A stretch of DNA of 64,000 bases, taken from positions 132,975 to 196,974 of the forward strand of contig CAVWOZ010000015.1 in NCBI GenBank assembly GCA_963756595.1, read 5' to 3'. Below are positions 24,723-61,561 of this stretch, in pieces; the stretch's first letter is position 1; every line of letters begins with the position of its first letter. Source of the DNA: an uncultured Acidobacteriota bacterium. GTDB taxonomy: Bacteria > Acidobacteriota > Thermoanaerobaculia > Multivoradales > UBA5704. The position numbers and the translations under genes were made by a program. The notes beneath the pieces are model-generated. The model searched no databases. It was not told where the DNA came from and saw only the letters and a list, made by a program, of their open reading frames with translations.

Positions 24723-26033
24723 TCAGGCCCGCTCGCTCCGTAGCGCCGGATCCTGCCGGGCGAGGTGGAGGTAGCGCTGCAGATCGGCGAGGCGCCCATC
24801 CCTGAACTCCAGGCTCGCCGCCTGCCGGAACGCGATCAGCGCGGCGATCGCCTCACACTCGAGGCCCCGCGACTGGAAGATCGCGAGGACCTCCTCGGCC
24901 AAACGCCGCACCTCGGGAATCCGTCCCTGGCCGGCGCAAAGGCTGGCGAGGTCGAGGGAGACCGCGGCTGCGCTGAATCCGACTTCGAGCTCGATGAACC
25001 CTGAACGAGCTTCCCGCAGTGCCCTTTCGGCTTCCTGCGGAAAGCTCAGCGCTTCGTAGATCTTCCCTTCGAGCCAGCGCAAACGGAAAAGAAGCAACGG
25101 ACTGCCGTAGCGTTGGAACTCATCGCGGGAAGCCTTGAGCAGAAAGCGGGCCTCTCGCGGCCGACCACTCTCCTGTAAGTAGGCCATCAGGCTGTGCCGG
25201 GTCGCGAGGTCGACGTACCTCTCGCAGGTGGGATCGAGCAGACCGAGTCCCTTGCGCAGCCAGGACATCGCCCGGTTCAAATCACCCGAGGTTCCATACA
25301 CACGCCCCTTCTGGGCGAAGGCCCGGCCGAGGAGATGGGTGTCTCCGTACCGCTTGTAGATGGCGATCGCTTCGTCGAGCGTGCGATGGGCCTCGGCCGG
25401 ACAGCGCCGGTCGCGATGGAACGCGGCTTTCAGCTCGAGCACGAACGCCTTCTCCAGAGGGTCTCCCGATCCCCGGGCAGCGAAGCCTTCGGCGGCTTCG
25501 AAGGATCTCTGGGCCCCTCGGAGATCGGACCGGCGACGCAGCGTTTCGCCGCGGCAAGCCCACGCACGAGCCCGCAGATCGTTGATCAGGGCACCACCAT
25601 AGAGGTCGGCGAGGAGCTTTTCCGCGACGGTCACGGCACAGTCGGCCAAGGCCTCGGCCCGGCCGAAATCCACATAGGAGGCTCTCAGGCTCTCCTCGAT
25701 CAGCCATTCACCGACCGCCCAGGTATGGAAGGCTGAGTCGGACTCGACCAAGACGTTCGGGGCTTGCGACTTCGCCTGCAGGCGGGCGATGAGGAGGGGG
25801 AGTTGCTGGCGCTCGTGAGCGAACCGATGGGCATACTCCCCCACCCGCGGCAGGAAATCTCTGAAAGCCCGGCTGTAATCCTTTGCCATGAACCTCCAGG
25901 AACCCAGGAGGAGGTCACCTCCCCGCCGGCTTTCGTCGCCGGGGGTGAGCGGTTCACCGTGTCGCTTGGTGAAGCCGTCGATCCTGGCGGGGACGTCCGG
26001 CTGAGAATTGGGATCGGGAGGGTTGACGGTCAT
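24723..26033 (-). CDS. Helical-repeat (TPR-like) sensor-domain protein, paralog S1, with no recognisable output domain
   Basis: Aligns by eye along ~350 aa with 26197..27585, 29260..30609 and 52269..53864. Examples: 'DLRARAWACRGETLRRRSDLRGAQRSF', 'LFRLRWLEGKIY', 'AAAVSLDLASL', 'GRIPEVRRLAEEVLAIFQSRGLECEAIAALIAFRQAA'. It lacks both the CPxC motif and an HTH. Confidence 0.75.
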   Translation of the reverse strand: MTVNPPDPNSQPDVPARIDGFTKRHGEPLTPGDESRRGGDLLLGSWRFMAKDYSRAFRDFLPRVGEYAHRFAHERQQLPLLIARLQAKSQAPNVLVESDSAFHTWAVGEWLIEESLRASYVDFGRAEALADCAVTVAEKLLADLYGGALINDLRARAWACRGETLRRRSDLRGAQRSFEAAEGFAARGSGDPLEKAFVLELKAAFHRDRRCPAEAHRTLDEAIAIYKRYGDTHLLGRAFAQKGRVYGTSGDLNRAMSWLRKGLGLLDPTCERYVDLATRHSLMAYLQESGRPREARFLLKASRDEFQRYGSPLLLFRLRWLEGKIYEALSFPQEAERALREARSGFIELEVGFSAAAVSLDLASLCAGQGRIPEVRRLAEEVLAIFQSRGLECEAIAALIAFRQAASLEFRDGRLADLQRYLHLARQDPALRSERA

Positions 26034-26196: not shown

Positions 26197-27585
26197 TCAG
26201 GAAGGCTGGGGAAAACGAAGGTCCGGATTGTTACGCACACGCTTGAGGAAGCTCGAGACCTCGCGGACGAGATCGAGCCCGGCCCGATCGATGCGCGCGG
26301 CACTCGAGAAGACGAGCAGGGCCGCCAGCGATTCACCGTGTGTATGGTGAGTCTGAAAGATCGCCAGGGTCTCTTCCGAGAGACGCCGCACTTCCGCGGT
26401 GCGCCCCTGAAGGACATAGACACCTGCGAGATCGAGCGAAGCGAGCGCGGCGTCGTAGGCCAGACCGAGCTCGACGAAGGCCTCACGGACTTCGCGGAAA
26501 GCGGCCTCCGCCTGATCGGTCCGCTGCAAGCCGAAGGCGACCAGCCCCTCCAGCCAGCGCAGCTTCAGCAGGTTCATCCGGTCGCCGGCTTTGAGATAGA
26601 GCGGCCGGCTGTGATACAGGAGGGCGAAGGCTTCCCGCACGCTCCCCCGTTCGTAGAGCGCGTGAATCAGGTTGTGACGGGCGGCGAGGAATACCCGGGG
26701 GTCGGCTTGGGGGTCGATCAGGTCGAGCGCCCGCCGGAGCAGCTTCATCTCTCCCTCGACATCGCCGGCCCAGCTGCAAACCAGCGACTTCTGCAGCAGG
26801 GTGCGGCCGAGCAGATGCCATTGGCCGAGCTTCTTGTAGATCGCGGCGACCCGGTCGAAGAGCTGGAGGGACTCTCCGAAGCGGTGCTGGGACCTCCGGC
26901 AGGACGCCAGGAGGGAGAGAACTTTGGCCTTCTCCGCGAGCGGAACCTGCGTTTCGGCCAGCACGGACTCGGTCACCGAGAACGCAGCCTCGGACGCGGC
27001 GAAGTCGGAGTTGATCCGGTACGCGTTGCCGAGTTGGGCCCAGGCGCGGGCGCGCAGGCCGGCGAGATCCTCTGCCCTACCCCATTCGCCGGCTCCCAGC
27101 CGGTCGGCCACCAGGACCGCCAGCTTCGCGAGCTCGACAGCGCGGCGCGGCTCCTCGAAGCCCGCCTCGTAGCTCGTCTCGGTAAGCCGCTCGCAGAGCA
27201 TCCGGTTCTGAAACCGCTGGCTGTTACTCAACAGGAGGTGACGACGCTCGGCCGGGCAATCCATGAGCTCCTGATAGAGGCTCTGGCCCTGGTTACGCTG
27301 CTGGGTGAGGCGGGCCTCGGTCGTCACCGCCTGTCCGAAGACGCGGTCGAGAACCTCGTCATAACCATCGCGGGCATCATGGGCGTCCTCCTCCGTGAGA
27401 TCCACCGTATCGAGCGCCTGCGGATCCTCGAAGACGTCGGCAGGCTCCCAGAGCCCCACCGTGACCTCCTGGCATTCCGGGCATCCCTCCAGCAGATGCC
27501 GAGCCACCTCGCGCATCTCCATCGTCGAGAGCCGTCCGAGAACGAACTCCTCGAGCGCCTCCGCGGTAGGATGCAGCGCGCTCAG
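26197..27585 (-). CDS. Soluble zf-HC2-like anti-sigma module fused to a TPR-like sensor domain (paralog S2, partner of sigma C)
   Basis: N-terminus 'HPTAEALEEFVLGRLSTMEMREVARHLLEGCPECQ' aligns with 'HPQRSLLSRFGRGRLRRHQNREIVRHLLAECPDCR' of 29260..30609. No TM-like hydrophobic stretch. The C-terminal sensor is homologous to S1/S3/S4. The start is uncertain. CTG 27585 overlaps the sigma stop (CTGA) and fits the alignment. TTG 27648 and ATG 27522 are alternatives. Confidence 0.75.
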   Translation of the reverse strand: MSALHPTAEALEEFVLGRLSTMEMREVARHLLEGCPECQEVTVGLWEPADVFEDPQALDTVDLTEEDAHDARDGYDEVLDRVFGQAVTTEARLTQQRNQGQSLYQELMDCPAERRHLLLSNSQRFQNRMLCERLTETSYEAGFEEPRRAVELAKLAVLVADRLGAGEWGRAEDLAGLRARAWAQLGNAYRINSDFAASEAAFSVTESVLAETQVPLAEKAKVLSLLASCRRSQHRFGESLQLFDRVAAIYKKLGQWHLLGRTLLQKSLVCSWAGDVEGEMKLLRRALDLIDPQADPRVFLAARHNLIHALYERGSVREAFALLYHSRPLYLKAGDRMNLLKLRWLEGLVAFGLQRTDQAEAAFREVREAFVELGLAYDAALASLDLAGVYVLQGRTAEVRRLSEETLAIFQTHHTHGESLAALLVFSSAARIDRAGLDLVREVSSFLKRVRNNPDLRFPQPS

Positions 27586-28115
27586 ACCCCCACCTTCTTC
27601 TTGCCGACTCCCGACGTGACCAGTTGCCGCGTCAGCGTCGCGAGGCAACGCGTCGTGATCTTGCTGATGCTCGCCGGGCTGTATCCCAGCCGCTCGGCGA
27701 GCTCGGCGGGAGCGTACCCCTGACGGTAGCGCAGGGACAGCAGCGAGCGGCAGCGCTCCGGCAAGCGCTCCAGCGCGCTGTCGAGGTCGCGGCGCATGTC
27801 CGCCCCTTCCTGTGCCGGATGGAGCGGCTCCGCCATGGCATCGAGCACCGCGGCGTCGACCGCATCGTAGATCTTGCGTCGCTGCTCTCGCCAGTACAGC
27901 AGGCACTTGTTACGGACGGTACCGAGCAGCCAGGCCTCCGGATCGCGGATGCCATCGCGATGGTAGACCAAGGCGAGCAAGGCCTGCTGGAGGATGTCTT
28001 CGGTGTCCTGCGGAGGGATGCGGTAATGTGCGAACAGGGCTTTCAAACGAGCCCGAGCCCCTTGGAGACAACCCTCAAGCGGCGACTCGACTTGGGGTTG
28101 GTCCAATGCACTCAT
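27582..28115 (-). CDS. ECF-type sigma-70 family factor (sigma C)
   Basis: Region 2 'RIPPQDTEDILQQALLALV..WLLGTVRNKCLLYWR'. Region 4 'RCRSLLSLRYRQGYAPAELAERLGYSPASISKITTRCLATLTRQL'. Confidence 0.88.
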   Translation of the reverse strand: MSALDQPQVESPLEGCLQGARARLKALFAHYRIPPQDTEDILQQALLALVYHRDGIRDPEAWLLGTVRNKCLLYWREQRRKIYDAVDAAVLDAMAEPLHPAQEGADMRRDLDSALERLPERCRSLLSLRYRQGYAPAELAERLGYSPASISKITTRCLATLTRQLVTSGVGKKKVGV

Positions 28116-28217: not shown

Positions 28218-28236
28218 TCCCCCGCTACGCGGCGTC

Positions 28237-28437
28237 CTAGCGATTTCCATCCGGGTCGATCTGCGGTCCCGCCAGGGGCAGCAGATGCGTCACGAGATCC
28301 CAGAGCCAGGAGAGAGTCCCTTGATCGTTCTGCACCGCCACCGTGGCGACCGCATGGGCCGGATGGACCGATGTCGCTCCGAGGACGAAGCTCAGGAGCA
28401 GGGCTGGGAAGGCGCGACGGAGATGCGGGCTGGTCAT
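28237..28437 (-). CDS. Small secreted protein/propeptide (66 aa), homolog of 54103..54387
   Basis: The ATG at 28437 is preceded by AAGGAGA with ~6-nt spacing. Signal peptide 'MTSPHLRRAFPALLLSFVLGATSVHPAHA|VAT'. The mature part 'VATVAVQNDQGTLSWLWDLVTHLLPLAGPQIDPDGNR' shares TLSxW and IDPxGN with the second copy. Confidence 0.65.
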   Translation of the reverse strand: MTSPHLRRAFPALLLSFVLGATSVHPAHAVATVAVQNDQGTLSWLWDLVTHLLPLAGPQIDPDGNR

Positions 28438-28613: not shown

Positions 28614-29159
28614 TCAGGATCCGGCCTGGAAGCCGGCGCCCAGGAGTTGCTCGGTCAGGGAGGCCAGACAACGGCGTGTCACTTTACGAATACTGGACTT
28701 GCAGTACCCCATTCGCTCCGCCGTCTCGGCGGTGCTGCAGCCGAATCCGTAGCGCAGCCTGAGCAGAGACCTGCAGCGATCCGGCAACTCGGCGAGGAGA
28801 GACTCGAGGTCGTAGCGCAGGTCCGCCCGCTCCTGGGGGGGCGCCTCCACATCGGCCAGCAGCTCGAGGAGCGTGCTGTCGACGAGGTCCCAGAGCTTGG
28901 CGCGGTGCTTCCGCCAGTAGATGATGCAGCGGTTGGCCAGCGTCGCAACCAGCCAAGGGTCGGGGTTGCGGATGCTCCCCGCCTTCGACACCATGATCAG
29001 GAACGTCTCCTGCAACAGATCTTCAGCGTCCTGGGCTGGAATGCGATAGCGGCCGAGCACCCTGCGGAGCTTGGGTTCTGCCCGCTCGAGGATCTCCTCC
29101 AGAGACGCCTCCACCAGCTCGGATGGGACCATCGGGTCCATGGCCTTATCTATCGACAT
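28614..29159 (-). CDS. ECF-type sigma-70 family factor (sigma B), with no adjacent anti-sigma gene
   Basis: 'RIPAQDAEDLLQETFLIMV..WLVATLANRCIIYWR' and 'RCRSLLRLRYGFGCSTAETAERMGYCKSSIRKVTRRCLASLTEQL'. Confidence 0.88.
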   Translation of the reverse strand: MSIDKAMDPMVPSELVEASLEEILERAEPKLRRVLGRYRIPAQDAEDLLQETFLIMVSKAGSIRNPDPWLVATLANRCIIYWRKHRAKLWDLVDSTLLELLADVEAPPQERADLRYDLESLLAELPDRCRSLLRLRYGFGCSTAETAERMGYCKSSIRKVTRRCLASLTEQLLGAGFQAGS

Positions 29160-29259: not shown

Positions 29260-30609
29260 TCAGGAAGCGCGGGATTCCTTGAGGTAGCCGCTCACCTCCC
29301 GGATCAATCCCAGGGTCACACGCTCCATCTCCGCCGCCTTCTGGAAGACGAACAGGGCGGCCACGGCTTCCCGATGGATGTCCCGCGACTTGAAGATTTG
29401 CAGCATCTCTTCGGCCAGCCGCCGCATCTCGGAGGTCCGCCCGTCGCGGGCGTAAATGGTCGCCAGGTCGAGCGACAGCAGCGCGGCGTCGTAGCCCAAC
29501 TCGCGGTCGATCAGCTCCCTGTGCACGCTGCGCAGGAAGTCTTCGGCCTCTTTGAAGTGCCCCAGCGCGCTGGCGATCTTCCCCTCCAGCCAACGCAGGC
29601 GCAGGAGGTTCATCTGGTCGCCGATCTGATGGTAGAGAGGGCGCGCGCTGTTGAGCAGCTGGAGGGCTTCCACGTAGCGGCCGCTCTCGACCAGGTAGAG
29701 GGTCAGATTGTGCTGCGCCGCCACCACGAGCCGCGGATCGGACGTCGGCTCCACTCGCTGCAACCCCTCGGTGAGGTTCCGGATCGCCGCTTCCGGATCG
29801 CCGGCCAGGCCGAGCAGGAAGCCGCGGGTGATCAGGGCCCGGCCGCACAGGTGCGAGTCGTCGCAGCGGCGGCCGATGGCCCCCACCCGGTCGAGGATGC
29901 GAAAGGCCTCCCGGAAGCGCTGCTGGTTGCCATAGAGGGAGGCCTTGATCAGCAGGATCTGCGCTTTCTCGATCGGGTCGCCGGTTCCCGCCTTGAGCAG
30001 CCGCTCGGCCCGCGCGAAGCTGCGCTCCGCCGCCCGGAAATCCGAACGGATCCGCTGCGCGTTGCCCAGGCATGCCCAGGCGCGCGCTCCCAGGTCGTCG
30101 ACCCGGGCCTTGCCGTAGGTCTCGGCGTCGAGGTGCTCCACGACCGCGACGCCGAGCGTCGCGAGGGCGAGGGCGCGCGCGGGATCTTGAAAACCCCATT
30201 CGCTGGCCGAGTCGAGGAGCAGCTCGCAGAATCCCCAGGTGTTGAACCGGGAAGCCTCCTCGCTGATCAGGGCCTGCTGGCGTTCGAACGGCTGAGCGAG
30301 GAGCTCCCGCAACAGCTCGGCGGCCACCGCCCGCTCGGCCTGGAGAGCGATCGACCGCCGGTCGACCTCGGCTCCCGCGCGGGCGAAGGCCGGCCCATAG
30401 TGGAGACGAGGCACCCGGATCCTGACGTCGCTCTGGTGGCTCTCGGCGCCCGGCTCGGTTCCCATGCCCGACGGGAGCAGCCGGGACGTGAGTTGGCGGC
30501 AGTCCGGACACTCCGCGAGGAGGTGCCGGACGATCTCCCGGTTCTGATGGCGACGGAGCCGGCCGCGTCCGAAACGGGAGAGCAGGGATCGCTGGGGGTG
30601 TCTAACCAT
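29260..30609 (-). CDS. Soluble zf-HC2-like anti-sigma module fused to a TPR-like sensor domain (paralog S3, partner of sigma A)
   Basis: 'MVRHPQRSLLSRFGRGRLRRHQNREIVRHLLAECPDCRQL', then the sensor domain ('DLGARAWACLGNAQRIRSDFRAAERSF', 'LLRLRWLEGKI', 'DAALLSLDLATIY', 'GRTSEMRRLAEEMLQIFKSRDIHREAVAALFVFQKAA'). The ATG at 30609 overlaps the sigma A stop by 8 nt (ATGGTTAG). Confidence 0.82.
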   Translation of the reverse strand: MVRHPQRSLLSRFGRGRLRRHQNREIVRHLLAECPDCRQLTSRLLPSGMGTEPGAESHQSDVRIRVPRLHYGPAFARAGAEVDRRSIALQAERAVAAELLRELLAQPFERQQALISEEASRFNTWGFCELLLDSASEWGFQDPARALALATLGVAVVEHLDAETYGKARVDDLGARAWACLGNAQRIRSDFRAAERSFARAERLLKAGTGDPIEKAQILLIKASLYGNQQRFREAFRILDRVGAIGRRCDDSHLCGRALITRGFLLGLAGDPEAAIRNLTEGLQRVEPTSDPRLVVAAQHNLTLYLVESGRYVEALQLLNSARPLYHQIGDQMNLLRLRWLEGKIASALGHFKEAEDFLRSVHRELIDRELGYDAALLSLDLATIYARDGRTSEMRRLAEEMLQIFKSRDIHREAVAALFVFQKAAEMERVTLGLIREVSGYLKESRAS

Positions 30610-31153
30610 CCTGAGGCTCGGCCGCAGGCTCCCGATCGAACCCGACCGCCAGGAGCTGCCGGGTAAGGGCCGCCAGACAGCGGTTGGTCACTTTACGGAT
30701 GCTGGAGGTCCGGTAGCCCATCTGCTCCGCCACCTCGGTCGGACCGTAGCCGAGCCCGTAGCGCAGCTTGAGCAGCGACCGGCAGCGGGTCGACAGCCGG
30801 GAGAGCACCCGGTTGAGGTCGTAGGTCAGCTCCGTCTTCTCCTGGTCCGGGGCCTGCGGTACCGCCAGCAGGTCGAGGATCGCCGTATCGACGGCTTCGC
30901 AGAGACTGCCGCGCCGCTTGCGCCAGTACATGATGCACTTCTTCTTGACCGTGCCGATCAGCCAGCTCTCGGGGCTGCGGATCTTGTCCCACTTGTACAA
31001 CAGGGTGAGCTGCGCATCCTGAAGGATGTCTTCAGCGTCTTCCGGCGGGATCTCAAAGTTCCTCAAGACTCGCTCCAGCCGGGGCCGGGAGTTCTTCAGG
31101 AGAATGTTGAGCGATTCCCGCAGTTCAGGATGGTCAAGAGTTGCCATAGCCAC
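30602..31153 (-). CDS. ECF-type sigma-70 family factor (sigma A)
   Basis: 'EIPPEDAEDILQDAQLTLL..WLIGTVKKKCIMYWR' and 'RCRSLLKLRYGLGYGPTEVAEQMGYRTSSIRKVTNRCLAALTRQL'. Confidence 0.88.
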   Translation of the reverse strand: MAMATLDHPELRESLNILLKNSRPRLERVLRNFEIPPEDAEDILQDAQLTLLYKWDKIRSPESWLIGTVKKKCIMYWRKRRGSLCEAVDTAILDLLAVPQAPDQEKTELTYDLNRVLSRLSTRCRSLLKLRYGLGYGPTEVAEQMGYRTSSIRKVTNRCLAALTRQLLAVGFDREPAAEPQDG

Positions 31154-31265
31154 TATTTATGCCGTCGACAGTCGGTAGGCTAACACCCCGTTCGCCACCT
31201 GTCCATAGACGAAGGGAAGTTCCGGCCGGGCCGGCTGGTGACCGGCGCGCCGCGACGGGATCTGC

Positions 31266-31304
31266 CCCCAAAAGCATAACGGCGGCCCTGGCAGGGCCGC
31301 CGTT
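31266..31304 (-). terminator. Rho-independent terminator after metK
   Basis: On the minus strand: AACGGCGGCCCT-loop-AGGGCCGCCGTT (12-bp stem) followed by ATGCTTTTGG. Confidence 0.7.
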
Positions 31305-31329
31305 ACAGCCGGGTCACGGAAGGGGATTC

Positions 31330-44687: not shown

Positions 44688-45602
44688 TTACCAGCTGCTC
44701 GAGGAGCCGCCGCCGCCGAAGCTGCCGCCGCCTCCCGAGAAACCGCCGCCTCCCCCACCTCCGCCCCAGCCGCCCCGTCCTCCCCCGCCGCCCCAGCCTC
44801 CGGGGCCGCCCATCCACCATCCGCCCGGCCCGCGGAACCCTCCGGAGGACGGGGTCTTCGGCAGGACCATGCGCAGGATCGGGAAGAGGATCAGCCAGAT
44901 TCCGGCCGCCACCAGCCCGACCACCGTGCTCGCCAGCGAGCCCAGGAAGAAGAGGATGGGGAGCACCACGATGTAGACGATCCAGCTCCCGCTGCGGATG
45001 GCGTTGAGGATGAAGGGGCCGAGGGCGAAGAGGGCGAAGATCAGGAGGCCCGGCCACGAGCGGGACTCGCCGCCGTTCCCCTCCGGCTGCTGCGCCGCCG
45101 GCGTCGCCAGCGGCTTCCCCTGGAGGGTGGTGACGAGGGCGTCGACCCCGGCCTCGATGCCGCCGCCGAAGTCCCCCTGCTTGAAGTGGGGGATGATGAT
45201 CTGGGTCTGGATGATGTTGGTCTGCAGGTCGGTGAGCTCGGGCTCCAGGCCATAGCCGACCTCGATCCGCATCTTGCGGTCCTCTTTGGCGACCAGCAGG
45301 ATCACGCCGTTGTTCTTCCCCTTCTGGCCGAGCGCCCAGGCGCGCCCCGTCTTGTTGGCGAAGTCCTCGATCGGATCGCCGTCCAGGCTGTCGACGGTGA
45401 GCACCGCGAGCTGGTCGCCGGTCTGCTTCTCGAGCGCCGCGAGCTGGGTCTCGATCCGCTGCCGCTGCTCGGGAGAGAGCAGGTTCGCCTGATCGACCAC
45501 CCGGCCGGTGAGCGGCGGCACGTCCTTGGCGCTCGCCCGCCCTGGTGAGCCGAGGAGGAGAAGGAGAGCGATCAGCGGCAGCAGCGGCAGCAAACGGCGC
45601 AT
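44688..45602 (-). CDS. TPM-domain protein (YgcG-like) with signal peptide, TM segments and Gly-rich tail
   Basis: 'LTGRVVDQANLLSPEQRQRIETQLAALEKQTGDQLAVLTV', 'GVILLVAKEDRKMRIEVGYGLE', C-terminal 'GGGGGRGGWGGGGGGGGFSGGGGSFGGGGSSSSW'. Confidence 0.8.
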   Translation of the reverse strand: MRRLLPLLPLIALLLLLGSPGRASAKDVPPLTGRVVDQANLLSPEQRQRIETQLAALEKQTGDQLAVLTVDSLDGDPIEDFANKTGRAWALGQKGKNNGVILLVAKEDRKMRIEVGYGLEPELTDLQTNIIQTQIIIPHFKQGDFGGGIEAGVDALVTTLQGKPLATPAAQQPEGNGGESRSWPGLLIFALFALGPFILNAIRSGSWIVYIVVLPILFFLGSLASTVVGLVAAGIWLILFPILRMVLPKTPSSGGFRGPGGWWMGGPGGWGGGGGRGGWGGGGGGGGFSGGGGSFGGGGSSSSW

Positions 45603-45603
45603 C

Positions 45604-46266
45604 TCATTCCTTTTCCAGACGGAGGGCGTTCGGAAGCTCGTCCTGGTCGTCAGCCTGGCGCGCCACGCCGTGAGTCGCCAACAGCTCGCCGCAGGCGCCG
45701 ATCGCCTCGACCAGCGCGGGCCCCGGCCGCCCCTCGCGAATCCCCCGCGCCAGCTTGCCGGTGATCTCCTCCCAGGCCCCCTCCTTCACCGCCTGGTGAA
45801 TCCCCGCGTCGGCGAGCAGCACGACCCGGCGCTCGAAGAGGGAGAGGAAGAGGAGGATGCCGGTGCGGTCGCGGGTGCGGAAGACCTCCTGATCGAGGAA
45901 GGCCGCGGCGGCCCGCCGGCGGGCGCGGGCGTCGAGCGCCGCCTCCCCCGCCAGGGCACGGCGGAGCGGCGGCAGCAGGGAGAGCAGATAGCCGAGCGCG
46001 CCACCCAGCAAGGCCGGCAGGGCGATCCACAGTTCGGGCGAAACGCCCCAGATCGATCCCCAGCGGTAGAGCGCGAACGCCGCCATCGGCCCGAGGAGCG
46101 CGCCGAGCGCCGCGCCCTTCCACGGGGAAGTCGCGTAGTCGTCGCTCCGCTCCACGACGTAGGGGACGATCTCCCCCGACGTCTTCCCCTCCGCCGCGGC
46201 CACGGCGGCTTCGATGGCCGCCCGGTCGGCGGGGGTGAAGAGGCGTTCGGTCTCCATCGTCGTCAT
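45604..46266 (-). CDS. TPM-domain membrane protein
   Basis: This is the C-terminal part of the long track ORF: 'ERLFTPADRAAIEAAVAAAEGKTSGEIVPYVVERSD', two TM stretches, 'RTGILLFLSLFERRVVLLADAGI'. Start is ATG 46266 or 46257. Confidence 0.65.
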   Translation of the reverse strand: MTTMETERLFTPADRAAIEAAVAAAEGKTSGEIVPYVVERSDDYATSPWKGAALGALLGPMAAFALYRWGSIWGVSPELWIALPALLGGALGYLLSLLPPLRRALAGEAALDARARRRAAAAFLDQEVFRTRDRTGILLFLSLFERRVVLLADAGIHQAVKEGAWEEITGKLARGIREGRPGPALVEAIGACGELLATHGVARQADDQDELPNALRLEKE

Positions 46267-46280
46267 CCTATCCCGGTTTG

Positions 46281-46697
46281 TCATTCCGTCGGGATTCCTC
46301 GCTCCCGCTTGCGCTGGCTCTGCCGGCGCTTCTCGTCGAGGCGGCGGGCCTTGGCGGCGCGGGAGGGGCGGGTCTTCCGGCGCGGCGCCTCCTCCTTGAG
46401 GTTCTCCCGCAGCAGCTCGGCGAAGCGTTCGACGGCGGCCTCGCGGTTCGCCCCCTGGGTGCGGTGGCGCTGCGCGGTGATGTGGAGGACGCCGTCGCGG
46501 GTGATCCGCGTCGCCAGGCGCTCGCGCAGGCGGAGCTTCTGCTCCTCGGAGAGGGCACCCGAGCCGGCGAGGTCGAAGCGCAGGGTCACCCGGGTCTCCA
46601 GCTTGTTGACATTCTGCCCGCCGGGGCCGCCGCTCCTCGAGGTCGCGAAGGTGACGTCTTCGTCGGGGATGGCGAGGTGGTCGTCGATCGGAATCAT
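46281..46697 (-). CDS. arfB: Alternative ribosome-rescue factor ArfB (peptidyl-tRNA hydrolase, YaeJ family)
   Basis: 'SRSGGPGGQNVNKLETRVTLRF' (GGQ motif) and a basic C-terminal tail. Confidence 0.88.
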   Translation of the reverse strand: MIPIDDHLAIPDEDVTFATSRSGGPGGQNVNKLETRVTLRFDLAGSGALSEEQKLRLRERLATRITRDGVLHITAQRHRTQGANREAAVERFAELLRENLKEEAPRRKTRPSRAAKARRLDEKRRQSQRKRERGIPTE

Positions 46698-46746
46698 GAT
46701 TCAGTATCCCAGGTAAGATGGCGTTACGAAACAGGAGATCTCGCTC

Positions 46747-48826: not shown

Positions 48827-50488
48827 ATGGCCAAGCAGACTCCATCCCCGGCAGATCCCGGCGAACGCCAGCCGCTCGACGAGCACCCTCGCCCGCGCCA
48901 CCTCCGCCCCGCGCCTGCGGCCTCTCGCGCCGCCGCGCCGGCCGCCGATCACCAGTGCACCCCGACGACGATCCGGAAGACCGGCAGCAACGGCGACGAG
49001 GAGCGCTTCAAGGGTCCCGGCGGCAAGCCGAGCTACATCGGCAACTTCAGCAAGGGGCTTCCCCACGACGAATTCGGCGAGGTCCATCGCGACGCCTACA
49101 AGTCTCTCCTCCACGCCGTCGACGAGGAGAAGGACTTCGACCAGATCACCCTCGGGCTCGGCCGCAAGCTGACCAACCCGCAGGCGGGGCTGGCGACCGA
49201 CACCGAGGGGCCCGATCCGAAGGACCTCAAGATCCTCGCCGCGCCCAGCCTCGACTCCGCCGAAGAGGCGGCCGAGGGGGTCGAGCTCTACTGGATGGCC
49301 CTGCTGCGCGACGTGCCGTTCACCGACTTCGCGACCAACGCGGACGTCGCCACGGCGGCGGCGGAGCTCTCCGGGCTCAAGGACTACACCGGCCCCAAGG
49401 TTGGCGGCAAGGTCACGGCGCAGACGATCTTCCGCGGCTGCGAGGCGGGGGACCTCGCCGGGCCGCTCGTCTCGCAGTACCTCCTCCACGACATCGGCTA
49501 CGGCGCGCTGACCCTCTCGCAGCGCATGCAGACCGTGCTGGCGGGGAAGGACTACCTGAGCGGCTTCGCCGAGTGGCTGCAGATCCAGAACGGCGGCAAC
49601 CCGGCGACCGGCGACGCCTTCGATCCCACGCCGCGCTACATCCGCAACATGCGCGACTTCGGCCAGTGGGTGCACGTCGACGCCCTCTACCAGGCCTACC
49701 TCGACGCCTGTCTGATCCTGCTCGACAGCGGCGCGCCGTTCGACGCCGGCAATCCGTACGTCAAGCCCCATCCGGACGAGAAGACGCAGATCGGCTTCGG
49801 CACCTTCGGCGGCCCGCACATCCTGAGCCTGGTCACCGAGGTGGCGACGCGGGCGCTCAAGGCCGTCTGGTACCAGAAGTGGTTCGTGAATCGCCGGCTG
49901 CGCCCGGAGGCCTTCGGCGGCCTGATCCAGGTCAAGCTCGAAGGGGTCGGCGGCGTCAAACGGGACTATCCGATCGATCCCCAGATCCTCAATTCCGAGG
50001 CCTTGAAGCGGACGCGCGCGAAGTTCGGCTCCTACCTGCTGCCGATGGCCTTCCCGGAAGGGAGCCCGACCCATCCCGCCTACGGGGCCGGGCACGCCAC
50101 CGTCGCCGGCGCCTGCGTGACGATCCTCAAGGCGTGGTTCGACGAGGACGCGCCGCTCCCCTTCAAGCCGCAGGTGCCGAATGCCGACGGCACCGCCCTG
50201 GTCGACTATACGGGGCCGGACGCCGGCGGCCTCACGGTCGGCGGCGAGCTCAACAAGGTGGCGGCCAACATCGCCATCGCCCGCAACATGGCGGGGGTCC
50301 ATTGGCGCAGCGACTACCAGCAGTCGGTCTACCTCGGGGAGAAGGTGGCGCTCCACATCCTGCGCAAGCAGCGCCGCGACTACCACGAGAAAGGGTGGTC
50401 GTTCACCCTGCGCCGCTTCGACGGCACCCGGGTGACGATCGACCGCAAGGGGGTCCACGACGAGAACGGCCACTCGGTGGACGTATAA
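48827..50488 (+). CDS. PAP2-superfamily / vanadium-dependent haloperoxidase-like protein
   Basis: 'RRLRPEAF', 'PEGSPTHPAYGAGHATVAGACVTILKAWF', 'IARNMAGVHWRSDY' (acid-phosphatase/haloperoxidase motif order). Confidence 0.75.
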   Translation: MAKQTPSPADPGERQPLDEHPRPRHLRPAPAASRAAAPAADHQCTPTTIRKTGSNGDEERFKGPGGKPSYIGNFSKGLPHDEFGEVHRDAYKSLLHAVDEEKDFDQITLGLGRKLTNPQAGLATDTEGPDPKDLKILAAPSLDSAEEAAEGVELYWMALLRDVPFTDFATNADVATAAAELSGLKDYTGPKVGGKVTAQTIFRGCEAGDLAGPLVSQYLLHDIGYGALTLSQRMQTVLAGKDYLSGFAEWLQIQNGGNPATGDAFDPTPRYIRNMRDFGQWVHVDALYQAYLDACLILLDSGAPFDAGNPYVKPHPDEKTQIGFGTFGGPHILSLVTEVATRALKAVWYQKWFVNRRLRPEAFGGLIQVKLEGVGGVKRDYPIDPQILNSEALKRTRAKFGSYLLPMAFPEGSPTHPAYGAGHATVAGACVTILKAWFDEDAPLPFKPQVPNADGTALVDYTGPDAGGLTVGGELNKVAANIAIARNMAGVHWRSDYQQSVYLGEKVALHILRKQRRDYHEKGWSFTLRRFDGTRVTIDRKGVHDENGHSVDV

Positions 50489-52268: not shown

Positions 52269-53864
52269 TCAATCGCCCGCGCCATCGAACCGGAGGTCCG
52301 GTTCAAACCGTGCCCTGCGGAGGTAGAGGAGCACTTCGCGGGCGAACGCCTCCGTCACCCGTTCCCGCTCCGCCGCCTGGCGGAAGAGGGTCAGGGCGGC
52401 GAGCGCTTCGCGATGAACATCCTGAGCCTGAAAGATGGGTGCCATGTGGCGGGCGAGAATCTTCACCTGGTCCGACCGCCCCAGACCGGCATAACAGACG
52501 GCAAGTTCGAGCGAGACGAGCGCCGTGTCGTAACCCAGGTTGCGAGAGGCGAATTCTCCGCGCACCCGAGAGAGCGTGGCAATTCCAGCGGAAACATCGC
52601 CCTGGCCGGCGGCTATCCGTCCCTCAGTCCACAGGACGCGAAAGAGATTCAGCTCCCCTCCGTACTTCAGGCACAAGCTACGGGCCTCCGGCAAGAGCGC
52701 CGCCGCCTCCTCCATTTGCCCTAGCCTGCTCAGGCCGTCAGCCAAGTTGTGTCGAATCCATAAGCGGACTCTTCCTTCCTCGTCGGAACGAATACTCTCG
52801 TTCAAGCCCCGGAGGATCCCCACTGCCTGCCGGAGATCCCCTAGGTCGCCGAAGAGCTTGGCTCTGTTGACGAGCACCTCAACCCGGAATCTTGAGCTGC
52901 GGGCGACTGCGAGGGCCTGATCGAGAAGCTCGGCGGCTTCGTCGGAGCGCCGCTGTGCCCGGCGCAGGGACGCCTTGAGCGAATAGAAGAGTCCTTCCTC
53001 GAGAAGCTCGTTCTGGGCCTGCCTACCGTCCTTCCACAGTTCCTCGGCCGAGACGAAGGCTCGTTCCGCGGCGGGGAGGTCGCCTTGAACCCGGATGGCG
53101 TTCCCTATGTGCGCCCATGCGAAGCCGCGAAGCCTCGCGCGCCAGGCATCGTCACCCTCTGCACGATCGGCGGCAGAGAGCGCCAGCTCCGCGACGGCAC
53201 GGCCCTGGATCGGATCATCGGCGCACAAACGATGCGTCTCAAGGCAAAGCGTCTCGCAGACCGCCCATTGCAACTCGGCGGGGGCGTCGCTAAGCCTTGC
53301 CGCCTGCTCGTCGCTCGGCATTCCGCGGAGGCGCTCCCAGAGTTCGCTCGCGGCAGCCCGATCACACTCGGAAGGGGAAGACGCAGCGGCGATCTTCTGA
53401 GCCCCACCTCCCGCCCTAAGAATCCGGGCCAGGTGGTCGAGCCTGGCAGCGGTCCTGCTCATCTCCGCCGCCTGGATGCTGAGCTTCTCCGCCTCGCCTG
53501 CAAGGAAGGAAAGCTCGCCGAGCTCGGCGTCTGCGTCCTCCGAGGTTCTGCAGTCGGTGAGGAGCCGTTCGATGAACCACGCTCCAAGGTCGATCGCCGA
53601 CCAGCGGAATCGCATGGCAGCGAGGAGCTTCTCCAGAGTCGAGGCATCGGGCGTGGTGAGCGCCCGCTCATACTCCGAGATGGAAGCGCGCTTGACCCGA
53701 GCGAGCCGCGCGAGGTCCGATTGCGTCAAGCCGAGAGCCGTCCGGAGGGCCGCAAGCACCCTTCCGAGGTGGAGCGCTCCAAGCCCTTCAACCTTCTTCC
53801 GTGCCCGGGCTCGGCGAGCCGCCCGCGCGCCCTCTTCACCCGTCGTGCGGAGATTCCTCATCAT
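52269..53864 (-). CDS. XRE-family HTH fused to TPR-like sensor domain (paralog S4)
   Basis: HTH 'LRTALGLTQSDLARLARVKRASISEYERALTTPDASTLEKLLAAM'. C-terminal sensor homologous to S1-S3: 'RLRGFAWAHIGNAIRVQGDLPAAERAF', 'LFRVLWTEGRI', 'DTALVSLELAVCY', 'GRSDQVKILARHMAPIFQAQDVHREALAALTLFRQAAERERVT', 'YLRRARFEPDLRF'. Confidence 0.85.
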   Translation of the reverse strand: MMRNLRTTGEEGARAARRARARKKVEGLGALHLGRVLAALRTALGLTQSDLARLARVKRASISEYERALTTPDASTLEKLLAAMRFRWSAIDLGAWFIERLLTDCRTSEDADAELGELSFLAGEAEKLSIQAAEMSRTAARLDHLARILRAGGGAQKIAAASSPSECDRAAASELWERLRGMPSDEQAARLSDAPAELQWAVCETLCLETHRLCADDPIQGRAVAELALSAADRAEGDDAWRARLRGFAWAHIGNAIRVQGDLPAAERAFVSAEELWKDGRQAQNELLEEGLFYSLKASLRRAQRRSDEAAELLDQALAVARSSRFRVEVLVNRAKLFGDLGDLRQAVGILRGLNESIRSDEEGRVRLWIRHNLADGLSRLGQMEEAAALLPEARSLCLKYGGELNLFRVLWTEGRIAAGQGDVSAGIATLSRVRGEFASRNLGYDTALVSLELAVCYAGLGRSDQVKILARHMAPIFQAQDVHREALAALTLFRQAAERERVTEAFAREVLLYLRRARFEPDLRFDGAGD

Positions 53865-54102
53865 CCGGTCTCCCTCAAAGCAGTGTCATGAATAGAGGAC
53901 TTTTGCCCTTAAAGAGATGGTGTGTGCTGGGGCTAGAGGCGAGCCGTTCCGGCAGATCGGGTCTCGCTTGACCGGTCCGAGAGTCATCTTGTACCGTCCA
54001 AGGGACTGTTTGTCCCTCCTTGCGGCACCTCTCTAGGAAGAGAGCGGAACCCGGGTGCCGCTTTGGCGGCCGGACTTGTTCCGCCCAGAAAGGACGAGTG
54101 TC

Positions 54103-54387
54103 ATGTCCCGTACGCGCCGACTGCATGTCGCACCTCTCCTCCTCGCTTCCTTCTTGATCGCCTGGCCTGCTCCGGGTGCTGCCGCGGAACGTCGGTCGGA
54201 AGGCCAGCCTGTTCACTTCTCACTGCTTCGGATTTTCTTGCCGGCGTGGAGGGCTACCCTCTCGTTTTGGGAGAAAGAAGGAAGCTCCATTGACCCCTAT
54301 GGCAATCCCAAGCCGAACGCTATAGCGCCTGTGCCGGGGAGCAACGGAATTCCTCCGACGCAAAGCAATCCCGGATCGACGAGTTAG
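54103..54387 (+). CDS. Small secreted protein/propeptide (94 aa), homolog of 28237..28437
   Basis: ATG at 54103 after AAAGGACGAG. Signal peptide 'MSRTRRLHVAPLLLASFLIAWPAPGAAA|ERR'. The mature part contains 'ATLSFWEKEGSSIDPYGNPKPN' (compare 'GTLSWLWD...GPQIDPDGNR') and a Pro-rich tail. It is divergent from the XRE-sensor gene. Confidence 0.6.
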   Translation: MSRTRRLHVAPLLLASFLIAWPAPGAAAERRSEGQPVHFSLLRIFLPAWRATLSFWEKEGSSIDPYGNPKPNAIAPVPGSNGIPPTQSNPGSTS

Positions 54388-54512: not shown

Positions 54513-55121
54513 ATGAAGACCCTCATGGCCGACTCGATCGATGGACTCGACATCCTGTCCATTCCGACTCTGGAGACGGAACGCCTGCGGCTCAGGTCGT
54601 TCCGCAAGAGCGACCTCGACGACTACGCCGCGCTGAACGCCGATCGGGAGGTCTTGCGCTATCGGACCACGGGGACGGAGCCCTGGGACCGGGGCCGATC
54701 CTCTCGCCACATGGCCTTCCTCGTCGGACACTGGAAGCTCTGGGACGCCGGCACGTGGGCGATGGAGGACAAGGAGTCCGGCGCGTTCCTCGGGATGGTC
54801 GGCTTTTCCTCGCCGGAGGGTTGGCCCGGGTTCGAGCTGGCTTGGACGCTCGCGCGGCGGGCTTGGGGCAATGGCTATGCGACGGAGGGGGCCCGGGCCG
54901 CCATGGACCACGCGTTCGTCGTCTGGAAGAGGGCTCACATCATCAGCCTCATCGCGCCCGAGAACCGGGCCTCCATCCGCGTCGCCGAGCGCCTCGGCGA
55001 GCGCCTGGAGGAACGCATTCTCCACCTTGGACGGGAGATGCTCCGCTATGGGCTCGGCCGGGAAACCTACCTGAGCGAGGTCGCCCCGGGCGGCGCCTTG
55101 GCTCTGCACGGCGAAACCTGA
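54513..55121 (+). CDS. GNAT-family N-acetyltransferase (RimJ/RimL-like)
   Basis: 'LETERLRLRSFRKSDLDDYAAL', 'WGNGYATEGARAAMDHAF', 'NRASIRVAERLG'. ATG at 54513. Confidence 0.85.
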   Translation: MKTLMADSIDGLDILSIPTLETERLRLRSFRKSDLDDYAALNADREVLRYRTTGTEPWDRGRSSRHMAFLVGHWKLWDAGTWAMEDKESGAFLGMVGFSSPEGWPGFELAWTLARRAWGNGYATEGARAAMDHAFVVWKRAHIISLIAPENRASIRVAERLGERLEERILHLGREMLRYGLGRETYLSEVAPGGALALHGET

Positions 55122-55140: not shown

Positions 55141-55905
55141 TCACAACCCCCCGCGCAAGATCTCGAAGTACCGCGGGCTCCCGGAGATGGAGTTGTGCCC
55201 GACGCCCGGCAGGACCTTGAGATAGGCGATGCCGGGATTGAACCTCGTCGCCAGCCGCCGGGTGCTGGCGGCGGGGATGACCTCGTCCTGCTCCGCCATC
55301 AGGATCAGCGTCGGCACCCGGATGGCCGGCGCGTAGCGCCAGGACTCGAACCTGTCGCGCAGGATCCAGGAGACCGGGACGTAGGGGAACTGCCCGGCCG
55401 CCAGCTCCTCCAGGCTGTCGTAGGGGGTCACCAGGACGAGGCGCGCGACCGGACGGCGGCTGGCGAGGCGGATGGCGACGCCGCTCCCCAGGCTGCGGCC
55501 GAGGACGGCGATCTCCCGATGCGTTTTGTGGACGAGGTCGAAGAGGGCCTCGGCGTCGCTCTGCAGCGCCTCCTCCGTGGGCTTCCCGGAGCTGCCGCCG
55601 TACCCCCGATAGTGCATCAGGTAGAGGGCGCGGTCGGGAAATTCCTGCGCGAACGCCGGCAGGCTCTGCGCCACGTCCTCGGCGTTGCCGCCGAAATAGA
55701 GCAGCGCCCTGGGGCCGTCGTGCGGCCGCACCGACACCGCCAAGCTCGCCCCGGGGACCTGGAGGCTCAGCGTGTCCGCCGGGTCCTGCAGGTCGCTCCC
55801 GGCCTGGGGGAAATAGATCAGCGAGCGCTGGAACAGCGCCAGGCCGACGCAGAGCGCCAGGTAGAGCAGCAGGAAGATCGCCAGCAGCCAGAGGACGGCC
55901 TTCAC
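55141..55905 (-). CDS. Alpha/beta-fold hydrolase with N-terminal membrane anchor
   Basis: 'VLWLLAIFLLLYLALCVGLALF', nucleophile elbow 'VLGRSLGSGVA', 'GVGHNS'. GTG 55905 overlaps the upstream stop (GTGA). The longer track ORF extension was rejected. Confidence 0.8.
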   Translation of the reverse strand: MKAVLWLLAIFLLLYLALCVGLALFQRSLIYFPQAGSDLQDPADTLSLQVPGASLAVSVRPHDGPRALLYFGGNAEDVAQSLPAFAQEFPDRALYLMHYRGYGGSSGKPTEEALQSDAEALFDLVHKTHREIAVLGRSLGSGVAIRLASRRPVARLVLVTPYDSLEELAAGQFPYVPVSWILRDRFESWRYAPAIRVPTLILMAEQDEVIPAASTRRLATRFNPGIAYLKVLPGVGHNSISGSPRYFEILRGGL

Positions 55906-56393
55906 GATCCGACCGCCGCCGAGACCGCGGCGTTCGCCGCGCTGTGCTTCTGACGTTTCCACATCAGCAGGACCAGCCAGAAGAGGAACGCCTGCTCGGG
56001 CACCGGCCAGACGGCCGGCAGGTCGATCACGGCGCGCCGCGAGAACAGGCTCAGCCGGGAGACGCTCCCTACCACGCGGTCCGACTGACGGACCTCGTAG
56101 GTCTTGCCGAGGAGGGAGGCGCACTTCAAAAAGTAGCTCCGCCCGTCGAGCTCGAAGTCGAACTGCGACCGGAAGGCGCTCAGCTTGGTGGCCTTGAGCA
56201 GGGGGCGCCCGTCCTTCTCGAGGACGAAGTCGCCGCTGAACAGCCCCTCCCGGAAGAGCCGGTAGGGCGCGCCCTCGACGGTGAGCGCCGCGGCTTCCTT
56301 GAATCGCGAGGCGTCGAGCTCGGCGATCGTCTGCCCCGCGGCGACGAGGCTGTAGTGGCGGGAGAAGAAATTGCGCGGCCGGGCTTCGATCAT
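55902..56393 (-). CDS. Hypothetical protein with C-terminal TM segment
   Basis: The ORF has normal composition and is translationally coupled to the hydrolase gene. I recognised no family. Confidence 0.45.
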   Translation of the reverse strand: MIEARPRNFFSRHYSLVAAGQTIAELDASRFKEAAALTVEGAPYRLFREGLFSGDFVLEKDGRPLLKATKLSAFRSQFDFELDGRSYFLKCASLLGKTYEVRQSDRVVGSVSRLSLFSRRAVIDLPAVWPVPEQAFLFWLVLLMWKRQKHSAANAAVSAAVGS

Positions 56394-60821: not shown

Positions 60822-61271
60822 CTAGAACTTGAACAGCGCGTCGAAGGCCGATCGCGCATCCCCCGGCGACCCCTTGTTGGAGTCCTGGCCGAACTCCTGG
60901 GCCACCTTGGGGGTGAAGAGGGGGCACTCGTTCCTGTCCCGCTTCTTGGCGATCCGCGCCGGGATCTCCGCGTTCTTCCGGCACTCCCAATGGACCGAGG
61001 TGTCGAAATTCACGCAGTTCGAGCAGGTGTGGAGATCGGCGCCGCACTTGTGGCAGGTCGCGTCGAAGGCGAGCGGCTCCTCGCCGAGGATCACCGGCCG
61101 CTTCTCGCCGCAAGCCGAGCACCGGAACACCGACTCCGTCGGCGCCCCCAGCCCCCGGCCGCGCGGCCCTTCCTTCTTCTCCCGCGGCCCCTGCAACCCC
61201 GGACGGGGCTTCTCGTCCCGGCGCTCCGAATCCTTGTAGCCCCGCTGGCGGTACTTTGTGTCGTCGGCCAT
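60822..61271 (-). CDS. Basic N-terminal / Cys-rich zinc-ribbon-like hypothetical protein
   Basis: 'FRCSACGEKR...ATCHKCGADLHTCSNCVNFD...WECRKN...ECPLF'. ATG at 61271. Confidence 0.55.
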   Translation of the reverse strand: MADDTKYRQRGYKDSERRDEKPRPGLQGPREKKEGPRGRGLGAPTESVFRCSACGEKRPVILGEEPLAFDATCHKCGADLHTCSNCVNFDTSVHWECRKNAEIPARIAKKRDRNECPLFTPKVAQEFGQDSNKGSPGDARSAFDALFKF

Positions 61272-61297
61272 GCTCGAATCTGTCTCCTGAAATCCGC

Positions 61298-61561
61298 TCA
61301 GCGGTAGTGGTACTTGCAAGCCACGATCGTCACGGCATCCTGCTCCACCTTGTAGACCAAACGGTGCTGGGCATCGATGCGGCGCGACCAGTAACCCTTC
61401 AACTCGTGACGCAAGGGCTCGGGCTTGCCCAAACCCGAAAAGGGTTCTCTCAGGGTGTCCAGGATAAGGGCGACGATCCTGCGGTGAATGTTCTTGTCGG
61501 TTGTCGCCCAAGCCGAAAAATCTTCAAAAGCGTCCCGTTCGAAGACGATCTTCCTGCTCAT
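61298..61561 (-). CDS. yoeB: YoeB/Txe-family toxin
   Basis: 'FERDAFEDFSAW..DKNIHRRIVALILDTLREPFSGLGKPEPLRHELKGYWSRRIDAQHRLVYKV...VTIVACKYHY'. Confidence 0.9.
   Translation of the reverse strand: MSRKIVFERDAFEDFSAWATTDKNIHRRIVALILDTLREPFSGLGKPEPLRHELKGYWSRRIDAQHRLVYKVEQDAVTIVACKYHYR

Follow-up and report, generated by a model that had tools for sequence, protein, structure and literature searches.

We describe here a divergent gene pair from an uncultured Acidobacteriota bacterium, consisting of a predicted transcriptional regulator, here called S4 (52269..53864, minus strand), and a small gene for a predicted secreted protein (54103..54387, plus strand). The pair lies in a 64,000-nt stretch of DNA (hereafter the window) from lineage UBA5704 (Acidobacteriota; Thermoanaerobaculia; Multivoradales), assembly GCA_963756595.1, contig CAVWOZ010000015.1, positions 132,975-196,974 of the forward strand. 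The window is a piece of core chromosome (priA, lptC/A-like, lptB-like, hprK, rapZ, phosphotransferase system genes, parAB, lptFG, metK, murB, secA and guaB), and the host is accordingly, with its Lpt genes, a diderm, lipopolysaccharide-making, high-G+C member of the Acidobacteriota, as a first-pass annotation of this DNA had already held. The nearest genomic loci to the S4 locus were likewise all in Acidobacteriota metagenome-assembled genomes (MAGs), from Thermoanaerobaculia/Thermoanaerobaculaceae and one member of the Holophagales.

S4 is an open reading frame (ORF) of 531 aa that combines an XRE-type helix-turn-helix (HTH) with a tetratricopeptide repeat (TPR) domain, and it is a candidate cytoplasmic receptor and regulator. 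An exact-sequence look-up returned no record of S4; 642 homologs were recovered, many of them named 'XRE-family HTH / TPR', with orthologs of 470-570 aa. The canonical Cro/C1-type HTH that had been proposed for its N-terminus was recovered at aa 37-84 (53613..53756, minus strand) by the Pfam models HTH_3 (PF01381, E 1.3e-11, above the curated cut-off) and HTH_31 (E 1.1e-9), while NCBIfam gave HipB/DicA-like HTH matches only, below cut-off. The HTH region was modelled by AlphaFold2 at a per-residue confidence (pLDDT) of at least 95, and the recognition-helix motif K-R-x-S-I-S-E-Y-E is nearly invariant among S4 orthologs. The TPR sensor domain occupies aa ~165-527 (52284..53372, minus strand), and Pfam assigned generic TPR models (TPR_12/TPR_MalT-like) to aa ~244-465 of it. 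As had been claimed from the first reading, the C-terminal ~365 aa of S4 are collinear with three paralogs in the window, S1, S2 and S3, at 31-34% identity, including the common tail EALAAL..FRQAA....YLRRAR..PDLRF; in tblastn searches within the window S4 matched these paralogs at E 2e-26 to 2e-45, and the four matched one another at E 3e-21 to 4e-72. The S4 model (mean pLDDT 86) is all-helical and has no hydrophobic transmembrane segment, which together with the fusions of the sensor to HTH and anti-sigma-like domains points to a cytoplasmic location. By alignment and model, near-invariant polar residues of the sensor fall in clusters on alternate TPR helices (N254, R257, K296, R300, R301, N372, R408, W411, E413, Y444, D445, H483 and R484, P0001 numbering).

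The small gene encodes a candidate propeptide of 94 aa with a signal peptide, an amphipathic Trp-rich helix, the sequence EGSSIDPYGN and a Pro/Ser-rich tail. Its product reads MSRTRRLHVAPLLLASFLIAWPAPGAAA/ERR...FSLLRIFLPAWRATLSFWEKEGSSIDPYGNPKPN..., and the N-terminus is made up of a basic n-region, a hydrophobic core and an Ala-rich end (...PGAAA, then ERR). The unit E-G-S-S-I-D-P-Y-G-N (54277..54306, plus strand) follows the family consensus (E/A)G(S/G)(S/G)xDPxG(K/N). A six-frame scan of the 64 kb for [IVL]DPxG[NQ] gave two matches, at 54289-54306 (plus) and 28243-28260 (minus), both inside small signal-peptide ORFs that adjoin sensor paralogs; the earlier description of a second IDPxGN small secreted protein about 240 nt from S4 and on the opposite strand agrees with the measured gap of 238 nt and with the EGSSIDPYGN sequence. 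The ORF is preceded by an AAGGA Shine-Dalgarno sequence, an AAGGA(G) ribosome-binding site is conserved across loci, and comparison of the window with the ortholog in locus L001 indicated purifying selection (pN, nonsynonymous, 0.08 versus pS, synonymous, 0.25). A chance ORF or chance motif is ruled out by the conservation, the pN/pS values and the uniqueness of the motif, and by these sequence comparisons 54103..54387 is a real gene.

In a profile search, the small protein belonged to a family of 184 protein clusters, all unnamed or 'hypothetical' and with no Pfam domain. Its parts are a Sec-type signal peptide, an amphipathic Trp-rich helix (consensus LSEAWxxVxxxW; LSEAWAFVSRIW...) and the DPxG unit, with helix and unit conserved side by side throughout the family. 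By inspection, 118 of 120 members have the expected basic-plus-hydrophobic N-terminus, with a hydrophobic run of at least 11 residues and an Ala-rich end such as AGPLAAA. Most members are 80-135 aa long, some exceeding 100 aa, and the two window proteins have 94 aa (54103-54387) and 66 aa (28237-28437). The 120 proteins contain 251 DPxG units; 49 proteins have one copy, and the 71 with 2-6 copies divide into 37 with two, 16 with three, 11 with four, six with five and one with six. Copy number varies from one to six between close relatives, and K or N follows each unit. The variable residue of DPxG is F in 176 units, S in 34, D in 21, N in 16, Y in three and L in one, and across deeper clades it is F, Y, N, M, D or S. 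In MAG MFD06742.bin.2.42, which has five receptor loci, it is mainly the two residues in front of DPFG (SN, YI, QT, GV, SI, GI) that distinguish the paralogous pairs. Copies linked to extracytoplasmic function (ECF) sigma genes have the unit at the extreme C-terminus (IDPDGNR or IDPDGYH, then the stop codon). Among the subfamilies, some have longer spacers (EGSSLDPDG...) and others Cys-flanked units (EGCHIDPSGC), the latter in 2-3 copies in L023 8001-8261, P0233 and P0240; the flanking Cys residues suggest disulfide-cyclised peptides. Processed signalling propeptides typically have short units in variable tandem number, placed at the C-terminus and diversified at particular positions, and the tandem multiplication of the unit and its extreme C-terminal position in ECF-linked copies favour a processed-peptide role here. 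The multi-pheromone propeptides of Rap-Phr systems have these features too (PMC11343458).

The pairing of receptor and small gene was followed in one genome per species, which gave 21 loci that are truly S4-like, a single MAG having as many as five. The small gene adjoins the receptor in about 19 of the 21, nearly always divergently and with a gap of 230-290 nt; it takes this upstream position in L001-L013, L015, L017-L019 and L021, and in L014 a two-gene operon has it on its upstream side. The copy in L016 is truncated, lacks the HTH and has no small gene. L020 is cut at a contig end, and in the full contig (L023) the operon has a divergent family member as well as a convergent one. In L030, a more distant HTH-TPR locus, two small genes stand in tandem. 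The adjacency persists at 41% receptor identity, in operons that join a Cys-motif-TPR gene to an HTH-TPR gene, and in the ECF sigma cluster of the window. From these comparisons the receptor/propeptide-type pairing is conserved and not a one-off, mainly in Thermoanaerobaculia and in all cases within the Acidobacteriota. A tentative reading, to which we would give a little less than even weight, is that a re-imported DPxG peptide gates the cytoplasmic TPR sensor, so that the pair would form an RRNPP-like module native to diderm Acidobacteriota.

The divergent intergenic region (53865..54102, 238 nt) carries conserved regulatory blocks: in an alignment of 13 loci long stretches are invariant although the receptors are only ~55% identical. 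On the side of the small gene, a promoter-like element, TTGACC - 16 nt - TGTACCGT (53968..53997, plus strand), has the appearance of a sigma-70-type promoter with an extended -10 (block consensus TTGACC-N16-TGTACC(G/T)T). It is equidistant from the ATG in the window and in L001, L003, L005-L009, L011, L017 and L018; the L010 element stands at a far greater distance upstream. The palindrome AGGGAC-TGTTT-GTCCCT (54001..54017), unique in the window, follows closely on the -10 element, and in 13 of 17 regions its core GGAC-N5-GTCC recurs some 96-103 nt ahead of the ATG. This palindrome is a candidate operator that S4 may bind, and the near-invariant HTH recognition helix (KRxSISEYE) in the same set of loci fits a conserved operator. 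We also considered an RNA hairpin in the palindrome or the ~100-nt leader; RNAalifold predicted 19 pairs, none with a compensatory change, so conservation appears to act at the sequence/DNA level and the hairpin was dropped. An Rfam scan of the intergenic region and its flanks gave only sub-threshold chance matches. A second conserved block nearer S4 (53886-53925), mostly ATCGTGAAcaaCGAACTTTGGCCTTCACACAGGTGGTGCC, contains the inverted repeat GTGAA-N15-TTCAC and may serve as the promoter of S4 or as a further operator. In L015 (5019-6000) the small gene is tandemly duplicated together with promoter, palindrome and leader, the copies encoding VDPNGN and VDPYGN (the second possibly truncated), and the S4-like gene there appears frameshifted.

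The other DPxG gene of the window stands in a cluster of ECF sigma genes at 24.7-31.2 kb, all on the minus strand, in the order sigma C, S3, sigma B, small gene, sigma A, S2 and then S1. The gene for ECF sigma factor C (30602..31153; Sigma70_r2) overlaps the start of S3 (30602-30609), and S3 (29260..30609) joins a zinc anti-sigma-like N-terminus (H4, H29, C34, C37) to the TPR sensor. ECF sigma factor B (28614..29159; Sigma70_r2/r4) has no adjacent anti-sigma gene and is followed by small gene b (28237..28437, 66 aa), a signal-peptide ORF between two ECF sigma genes that ends in ...LAGPQIDPDGNR at its stop codon. Next come ECF sigma factor A (27582..28115; Sigma70_r2/r4), S2 (26197..27585, start uncertain), with an H-x4-C-x2-C N-terminus before the TPR sensor, and S1 (24723..26033), a sensor paralog that lacks both the HTH and the Cys motif; the sensor regions of all three paralogs were identified from the alignments. 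S2 has no ATG, GTG or TTG near its conserved N-terminus (..LSALHPTAEALEEF..), where a CTG at 27583-27585 (minus) overlaps the TGA stop of sigma A, so that either a non-canonical start codon or a sequence error is indicated. The cluster from sigma C to S2 is syntenic in L027-L029, with metK on one side and lptFG on the other in the window, L027 and L029; orthologs of gene b occupy the same slot in L027 (...VRIDPDGYH, then stop) and L028.

The upstream regions of gene b (window 28438-28613, minus strand; L027 10019-10151; L028 10030-10192) share the ECF -35-like sequence GCGG(G/T/C)AACT and a palindrome, GCCTATGGC, conserved in the three genomes, and the peptide gene of the cluster may be ECF-dependent. 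Upstream of each of the three ECF sigma genes stands the conserved element TGGACA-N17-TGnTA(G/A/C)(C/T)CT (31154-31329, 29160-29262 and 28116-28236, minus strand). The layout TGGACA-N17-TGnTAnnnT precedes ECF sigma genes in four genomes and is the same as that before the S4-side small gene; with such a housekeeping-type extended -10 promoter, the sigma genes may not be autoregulated.

The first-pass annotation had called the Cys-motif paralogs fusions to a zinc-binding anti-sigma (ZAS) domain. H4, H29, C34 and C37 do not vary among S3 orthologs; the resulting motif, H-x24-H-x4-C-x2-C, exceeds the spacing of the canonical H-x3-C-x2-C by one residue, and neither the S2 nor the S3 N-terminus matched Pfam zf-HC2. 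Modelled at pLDDT 76, the S3 N-terminus consists of three short helices, and all ten Foldseek matches of this model were zinc anti-sigma domains (ChrR, DdvA, RslA), which superimpose at 1.6-2.6 A over ~40 residues with weak E-values of 0.9-10. By these weak matches the domain is anti-sigma-like, and the H-x4-C-x2-C motif of S2 and S3 is not the canonical one. Like the ZAS factors RsrA, ChrR and RslA, S2 and S3 are encoded directly after ECF sigma genes, with overlap in the case of S3 and sigma C. Unlike them, they end in a soluble TPR domain of ~360 aa in place of a redox switch, cupin or transmembrane domain, and a gene for a small secreted DPxG protein is embedded in their cluster.

A profile built from the four sensor domains of the window and run against representative protein clusters recovered 25208 representatives at E≤1e-3 and 3332 at E≤1e-30; the named members are Thermoanaerobaculia. 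Among the best 150, 101 carry H-x3/4-C-x2-C (70 with x4 spacing, 31 with x3), at least ten an XRE HTH, and 39 neither or are truncated, so that by this motif count the anti-sigma form is commoner than the HTH form. The suggestion of one sensor family with swapped output modules is borne out by these numbers, and DPxG genes track the sensor in both the HTH and the ZAS-like fusions, for which a census had been proposed. Both forms also meet in two-gene operons in which an H-x4-C-x2-C-TPR gene precedes an HTH-TPR gene, divergent from DPxG small genes (L014 4650-7515, L023 8415-11255, L030 3703-6491). No ECF sigma gene was found in these operons or their immediate flanks, where the partner of the Cys-motif paralog may be the HTH paralog and not a sigma factor. 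Three proteins of 1090-1159 aa (P0244, P0260, P0280) have two sensor modules and HTH_3/HTH_31 matches at aa ~615-735, P0244 with an additional N-terminal HTH-like stretch; these may be receptors duplicated in one chain or mis-joined genes.

The link to ECF sigma factors, which are classical reporters of envelope stress, bears on a variant of the signalling scheme in which export, cleavage, re-import and TPR binding are the same, and in which the small protein is a bait whose cleavage by periplasmic proteases would inform S4 and the soluble anti-sigma proteins of the state of the cell's own envelope rather than of population density. The predominance of anti-sigma-like fusions beside ECF sigma genes speaks for such a proteolysis reporter, as does the syntenic position of the ECF cluster among Lpt envelope genes across genomes. 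The several diversified paralogous pairs per genome and the variable residues next to DPxG resemble instead the diversification of signal specificity, and we give the reporter a slim chance.

A possible third component of the S4 module follows the small gene in the same orientation, a GNAT-type acetyltransferase gene (54513..55121, plus strand; Pfam Acetyltransf_3, E 2e-31), with no intrinsic terminator found between the two. A GNAT gene occupies the same position in 13 related loci (L002, L003, L004, L008, L009, L011, L012, L015, L017, L018, L019, L021 and L026) at 61-87% identity, higher than that of the receptor. GNATs use acetyl-CoA and this one has, by inspection, no signal peptide, which makes the cytoplasm its expected place of action; many paralogous pairs do without it, so that it is accessory. 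Its nearest solved relatives include the bleomycin acetyltransferase BlmB and PA3944, an enzyme that acetylates polymyxins (PMC8072286).

That these relatives act on peptide antibiotics would fit an immunity role and a different view of the pair, in which the small secreted protein is output and not input: S4 and the ECF sigma factors would sense something else and have the small protein as their main regulated target, either a small periplasmic protein or an amphipathic peptide with antimicrobial or envelope activity, and the GNAT would serve in self-protection or be unrelated. The Trp-rich amphipathic helix, retained family-wide alongside the DPxG unit, suits such a protein, and divergent regulator-target pairs are common among XRE regulators. 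The idea is weakened because the small-protein family follows the sensor across its outputs, whether HTH, Cys-motif/anti-sigma or both in one operon, because it is the short unit and not the helix that is multiplied from one to six times, and because the unit sits at the very C-terminus in ECF-linked copies; the absence of the GNAT from many paralogous pairs also tells against the self-protection role. We regard the output explanation as unlikely, though well short of negligible.

The proposal of a re-imported peptide was compared with described systems. Peptide quorum sensing with cytoplasmic TPR receptors has been described in Bacillota and their mobile elements (PMC10075063, PMC11343458). 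RRNPP_detector, which was applied to Firmicutes and viruses, uses as its signature a propeptide of 10-100 aa, Sec export, a receptor of 250-500 aa, C-terminal TPRs and direct adjacency (Bernard et al. 2023, PMC10075063). The S4 pair has four of these five features and departs in receptor length (531 aa versus 250-500). As in the RRNPP systems (Rap-Phr, NprR-NprX, PlcR-PapR, PrgX, Rgg-SHP and AimR-AimP), the receptor has C-terminal TPRs, joined to an HTH as in PlcR, NprR and Rgg; an adjacent small gene encodes a Sec-type propeptide with the candidate mature peptide at or near its C-terminus; and several diversified pairs occur per genome. Divergent gene order is also known from Rgg/SHP and PrgX/PrgQ. 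The multiplied units recall some Phr propeptides (PMC11343458), and Rap-peptide complexes are among the best structural matches of S4. The module differs in its diderm acidobacterial host, in the length of S4, in having no detectable RRNPP sequence homology, in the long conserved amphipathic helix of the S4-side pro-region, in the conserved GNAT that is often attached, and in a sensor for which anti-sigma-like fusions outnumber HTH fusions.

In a Foldseek search with the S4 model, Rap structures ranked 2-3, 28, 32 and 49 among the 50 best matches listed, with target-normalised TM-scores (TMt) of 0.45-0.63, and the Rap-peptide complexes 4gyo, 8rst and 8rtc had the best such scores of those listed (0.61-0.63). 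These scores, the conserved polar TPR residues, the operator candidate and a GNAT related to a peptide-acetylating enzyme speak for RRNPP-like gating of S4, as do, from the genome comparisons, the conserved adjacency, the variable number of units, the C-terminal unit and the diversified residues before DPFG.

Several observations weigh on the other side. The Rap similarity (E ~1e-4) is no better than that to LGN (TMt 0.59), TTC7B or Tom71, and PlcR, NprR, Rgg and AimR were absent from the 50 best Foldseek matches listed, so that the structural and profile comparison of S4 with the TPR domains of these four regulators, which had been put forward earlier as a check, did not come out in favour of a specific kinship. 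Pfam and NCBIfam gave generic TPR and HTH models for S4 and no RRNPP family, and a PDB profile search gave no RRNPP chain in the best 60 of 106 matches, which included designed TPRs, kinesin light chain and HipB-type HTHs. A Foldseek search of viral models for AimR or phage Rap returned only giant-virus TPR proteins and small HTH proteins. The RRNPP-like architecture claimed in the first-pass annotation accordingly stands as regards the conserved pair and the four shared features, and fails as regards sequence membership in any RRNPP family. No DPxG small gene was found near the more distant HTH-TPR relative L031, and the ECF cluster of L029 has lost its small gene. Such a long conserved helix as that of the pro-region is unusual for an RRNPP propeptide and suggests that it has a separate role. 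We also looked for receptor columns that track the peptide class; six columns split hydrophobic-x from polar-x units, a division confounded by phylogeny and by a frameshifted locus, and they were set aside. No Opp-type binding protein or permease was found within the 64-kb window or the annotated flanks of related loci, an absence that also counts for the output explanation. Finally, in a diderm cell the peptide must traverse two membranes, out and in.

The last two difficulties would vanish if the TPR domain bound the small pre-protein, through its DPxG unit or its helix, before export and so reported unexported substrate, with no re-import. Sensor and small protein would then meet in the cytoplasm, where the one is located and the other is made, much as in class II type III chaperones such as IpgC with MxiE. 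TPR chaperone/co-activator logic of this kind is established in Gram-negative type III secretion, and the module resembles IpgC-MxiE in having a TPR module that could bind a small secreted protein and link it to transcription. Here, however, TPR and HTH or anti-sigma domain form one chain; the small protein, with its usual kind of Sec signal peptide and Ala-rich cleavage site, is not a type III substrate; and no secretion apparatus is linked to the loci examined. With K or N after each, the tandem units have the look of cleavage products and not of a chaperone-binding region, and an export-coupled switch seems to us improbable. A precedent for peptide control in a diderm is HetR of Anabaena, a cytoplasmic transcription factor controlled by the encoded short motif RGSGR of PatS and HetN; HetR, unlike S4, does not belong to the TPR proteins, a classical Sec signal peptide is missing from PatS, and the genes are not paired side by side.

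Because S4 has no sequence-level RRNPP match and its fold match to Rap is no better than to generic TPR proteins, we describe the S4 system as one that appears to work like RRNPP and not as a member of that group. Given the domain architecture, conserved adjacency, repeat structure, conserved palindrome and, from its sequence features, secreted small protein of the module, RRNPP-like gating is, by comparative genomics, the best available account. In this scheme the small gene would be transcribed from its sigma-70-type promoter and its product exported by Sec with removal of the signal peptide. The pro-region would then be cut outside the cytoplasm to give one or several short xxDPxG peptides, from at or near the C-terminus and up to six-fold in relatives, and such a peptide, with SSIDPYGN and EGSSIDPYGNPKPN as candidates for S4, would re-enter through an oligopeptide permease and bind S4 in the concave groove of its cytoplasmic TPR domain. 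Binding would alter the occupancy by an S4 dimer of the GGAC-N5-GTCC palindrome just downstream of the -10 of the small gene, which would feed back on peptide production and the downstream GNAT. Once imported, the peptide may be acetylated by the GNAT, which would modify the signal or serve its turnover. Release of ECF sigma factors in the 24.7-31.2 kb cluster would depend on the cognate IDPDG peptide, through the fusion of sensor and zinc anti-sigma-like domain.

A broader proposal is that Thermoanaerobaculia and related Acidobacteriota use a hitherto undescribed language of genetically encoded, secreted xxDPxG peptides, often several per precursor, read in the cytoplasm by one TPR family that is wired to XRE repressors, to soluble zinc anti-sigma proteins or to both, with a GNAT acting on the signal; this is conceivable, although we are more inclined to doubt it than to adopt it. 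If true, it would be the first RRNPP-type peptide signalling outside monoderms and the first peptide-gated ECF sigma/anti-sigma switch, with ECF sigma factors open to control by soluble anti-sigmas that sense a re-imported extracytoplasmic peptide. Abundant and poorly cultured soil Acidobacteria would then have a diversified peptide communication that can be read from genomes, and regulator, propeptide and GNAT would make up a compact three-gene module with a predicted operator and predicted ligands. Full-text searches found no paper on RRNPP in Acidobacteriota, a search for RRNPP with 'diderm' found only an unrelated plasmid review, and the ECF classification paper held no group matching the cluster with sensor-fused anti-sigmas. 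The pair is real, conserved and undescribed in the literature searched. Even if the peptide is not the ligand, an uncharacterised sensor family and an unannotated family of secreted proteins (184 clusters) that are tightly linked would be new.

The remaining neighbours of S4 (Nramp, alpha/beta hydrolase, a second GNAT, amidase and others) were considered as parts of the module and rejected; they are not conserved next to S4 homologs and were therefore treated as unrelated, the sole exception being the second GNAT, which is kept beside the S4 homolog in L021. Four further ORFs of the window have no Pfam match at E≤1e-5: 48827-50488 (plus), 45508-46716 (plus) and 60822-61511 (minus), all with coding-like G+C content at third codon positions, and 55902-56393 (minus), a listed ORF of 163 aa. 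The ORFs at 48827-50488, 45508-46716 and 55902-56393 also have no NCBIfam match at E≤1e-3, and where tested the four are not conserved beside S4 homologs. Near the start of the window, two adjoining genes of the Uma2 family (putative restriction endonuclease-like; 2647-3582 and 3712-4494, minus strand) lie in a stretch of lower G+C content, 61% at 2-4 kb against ~70% around it.

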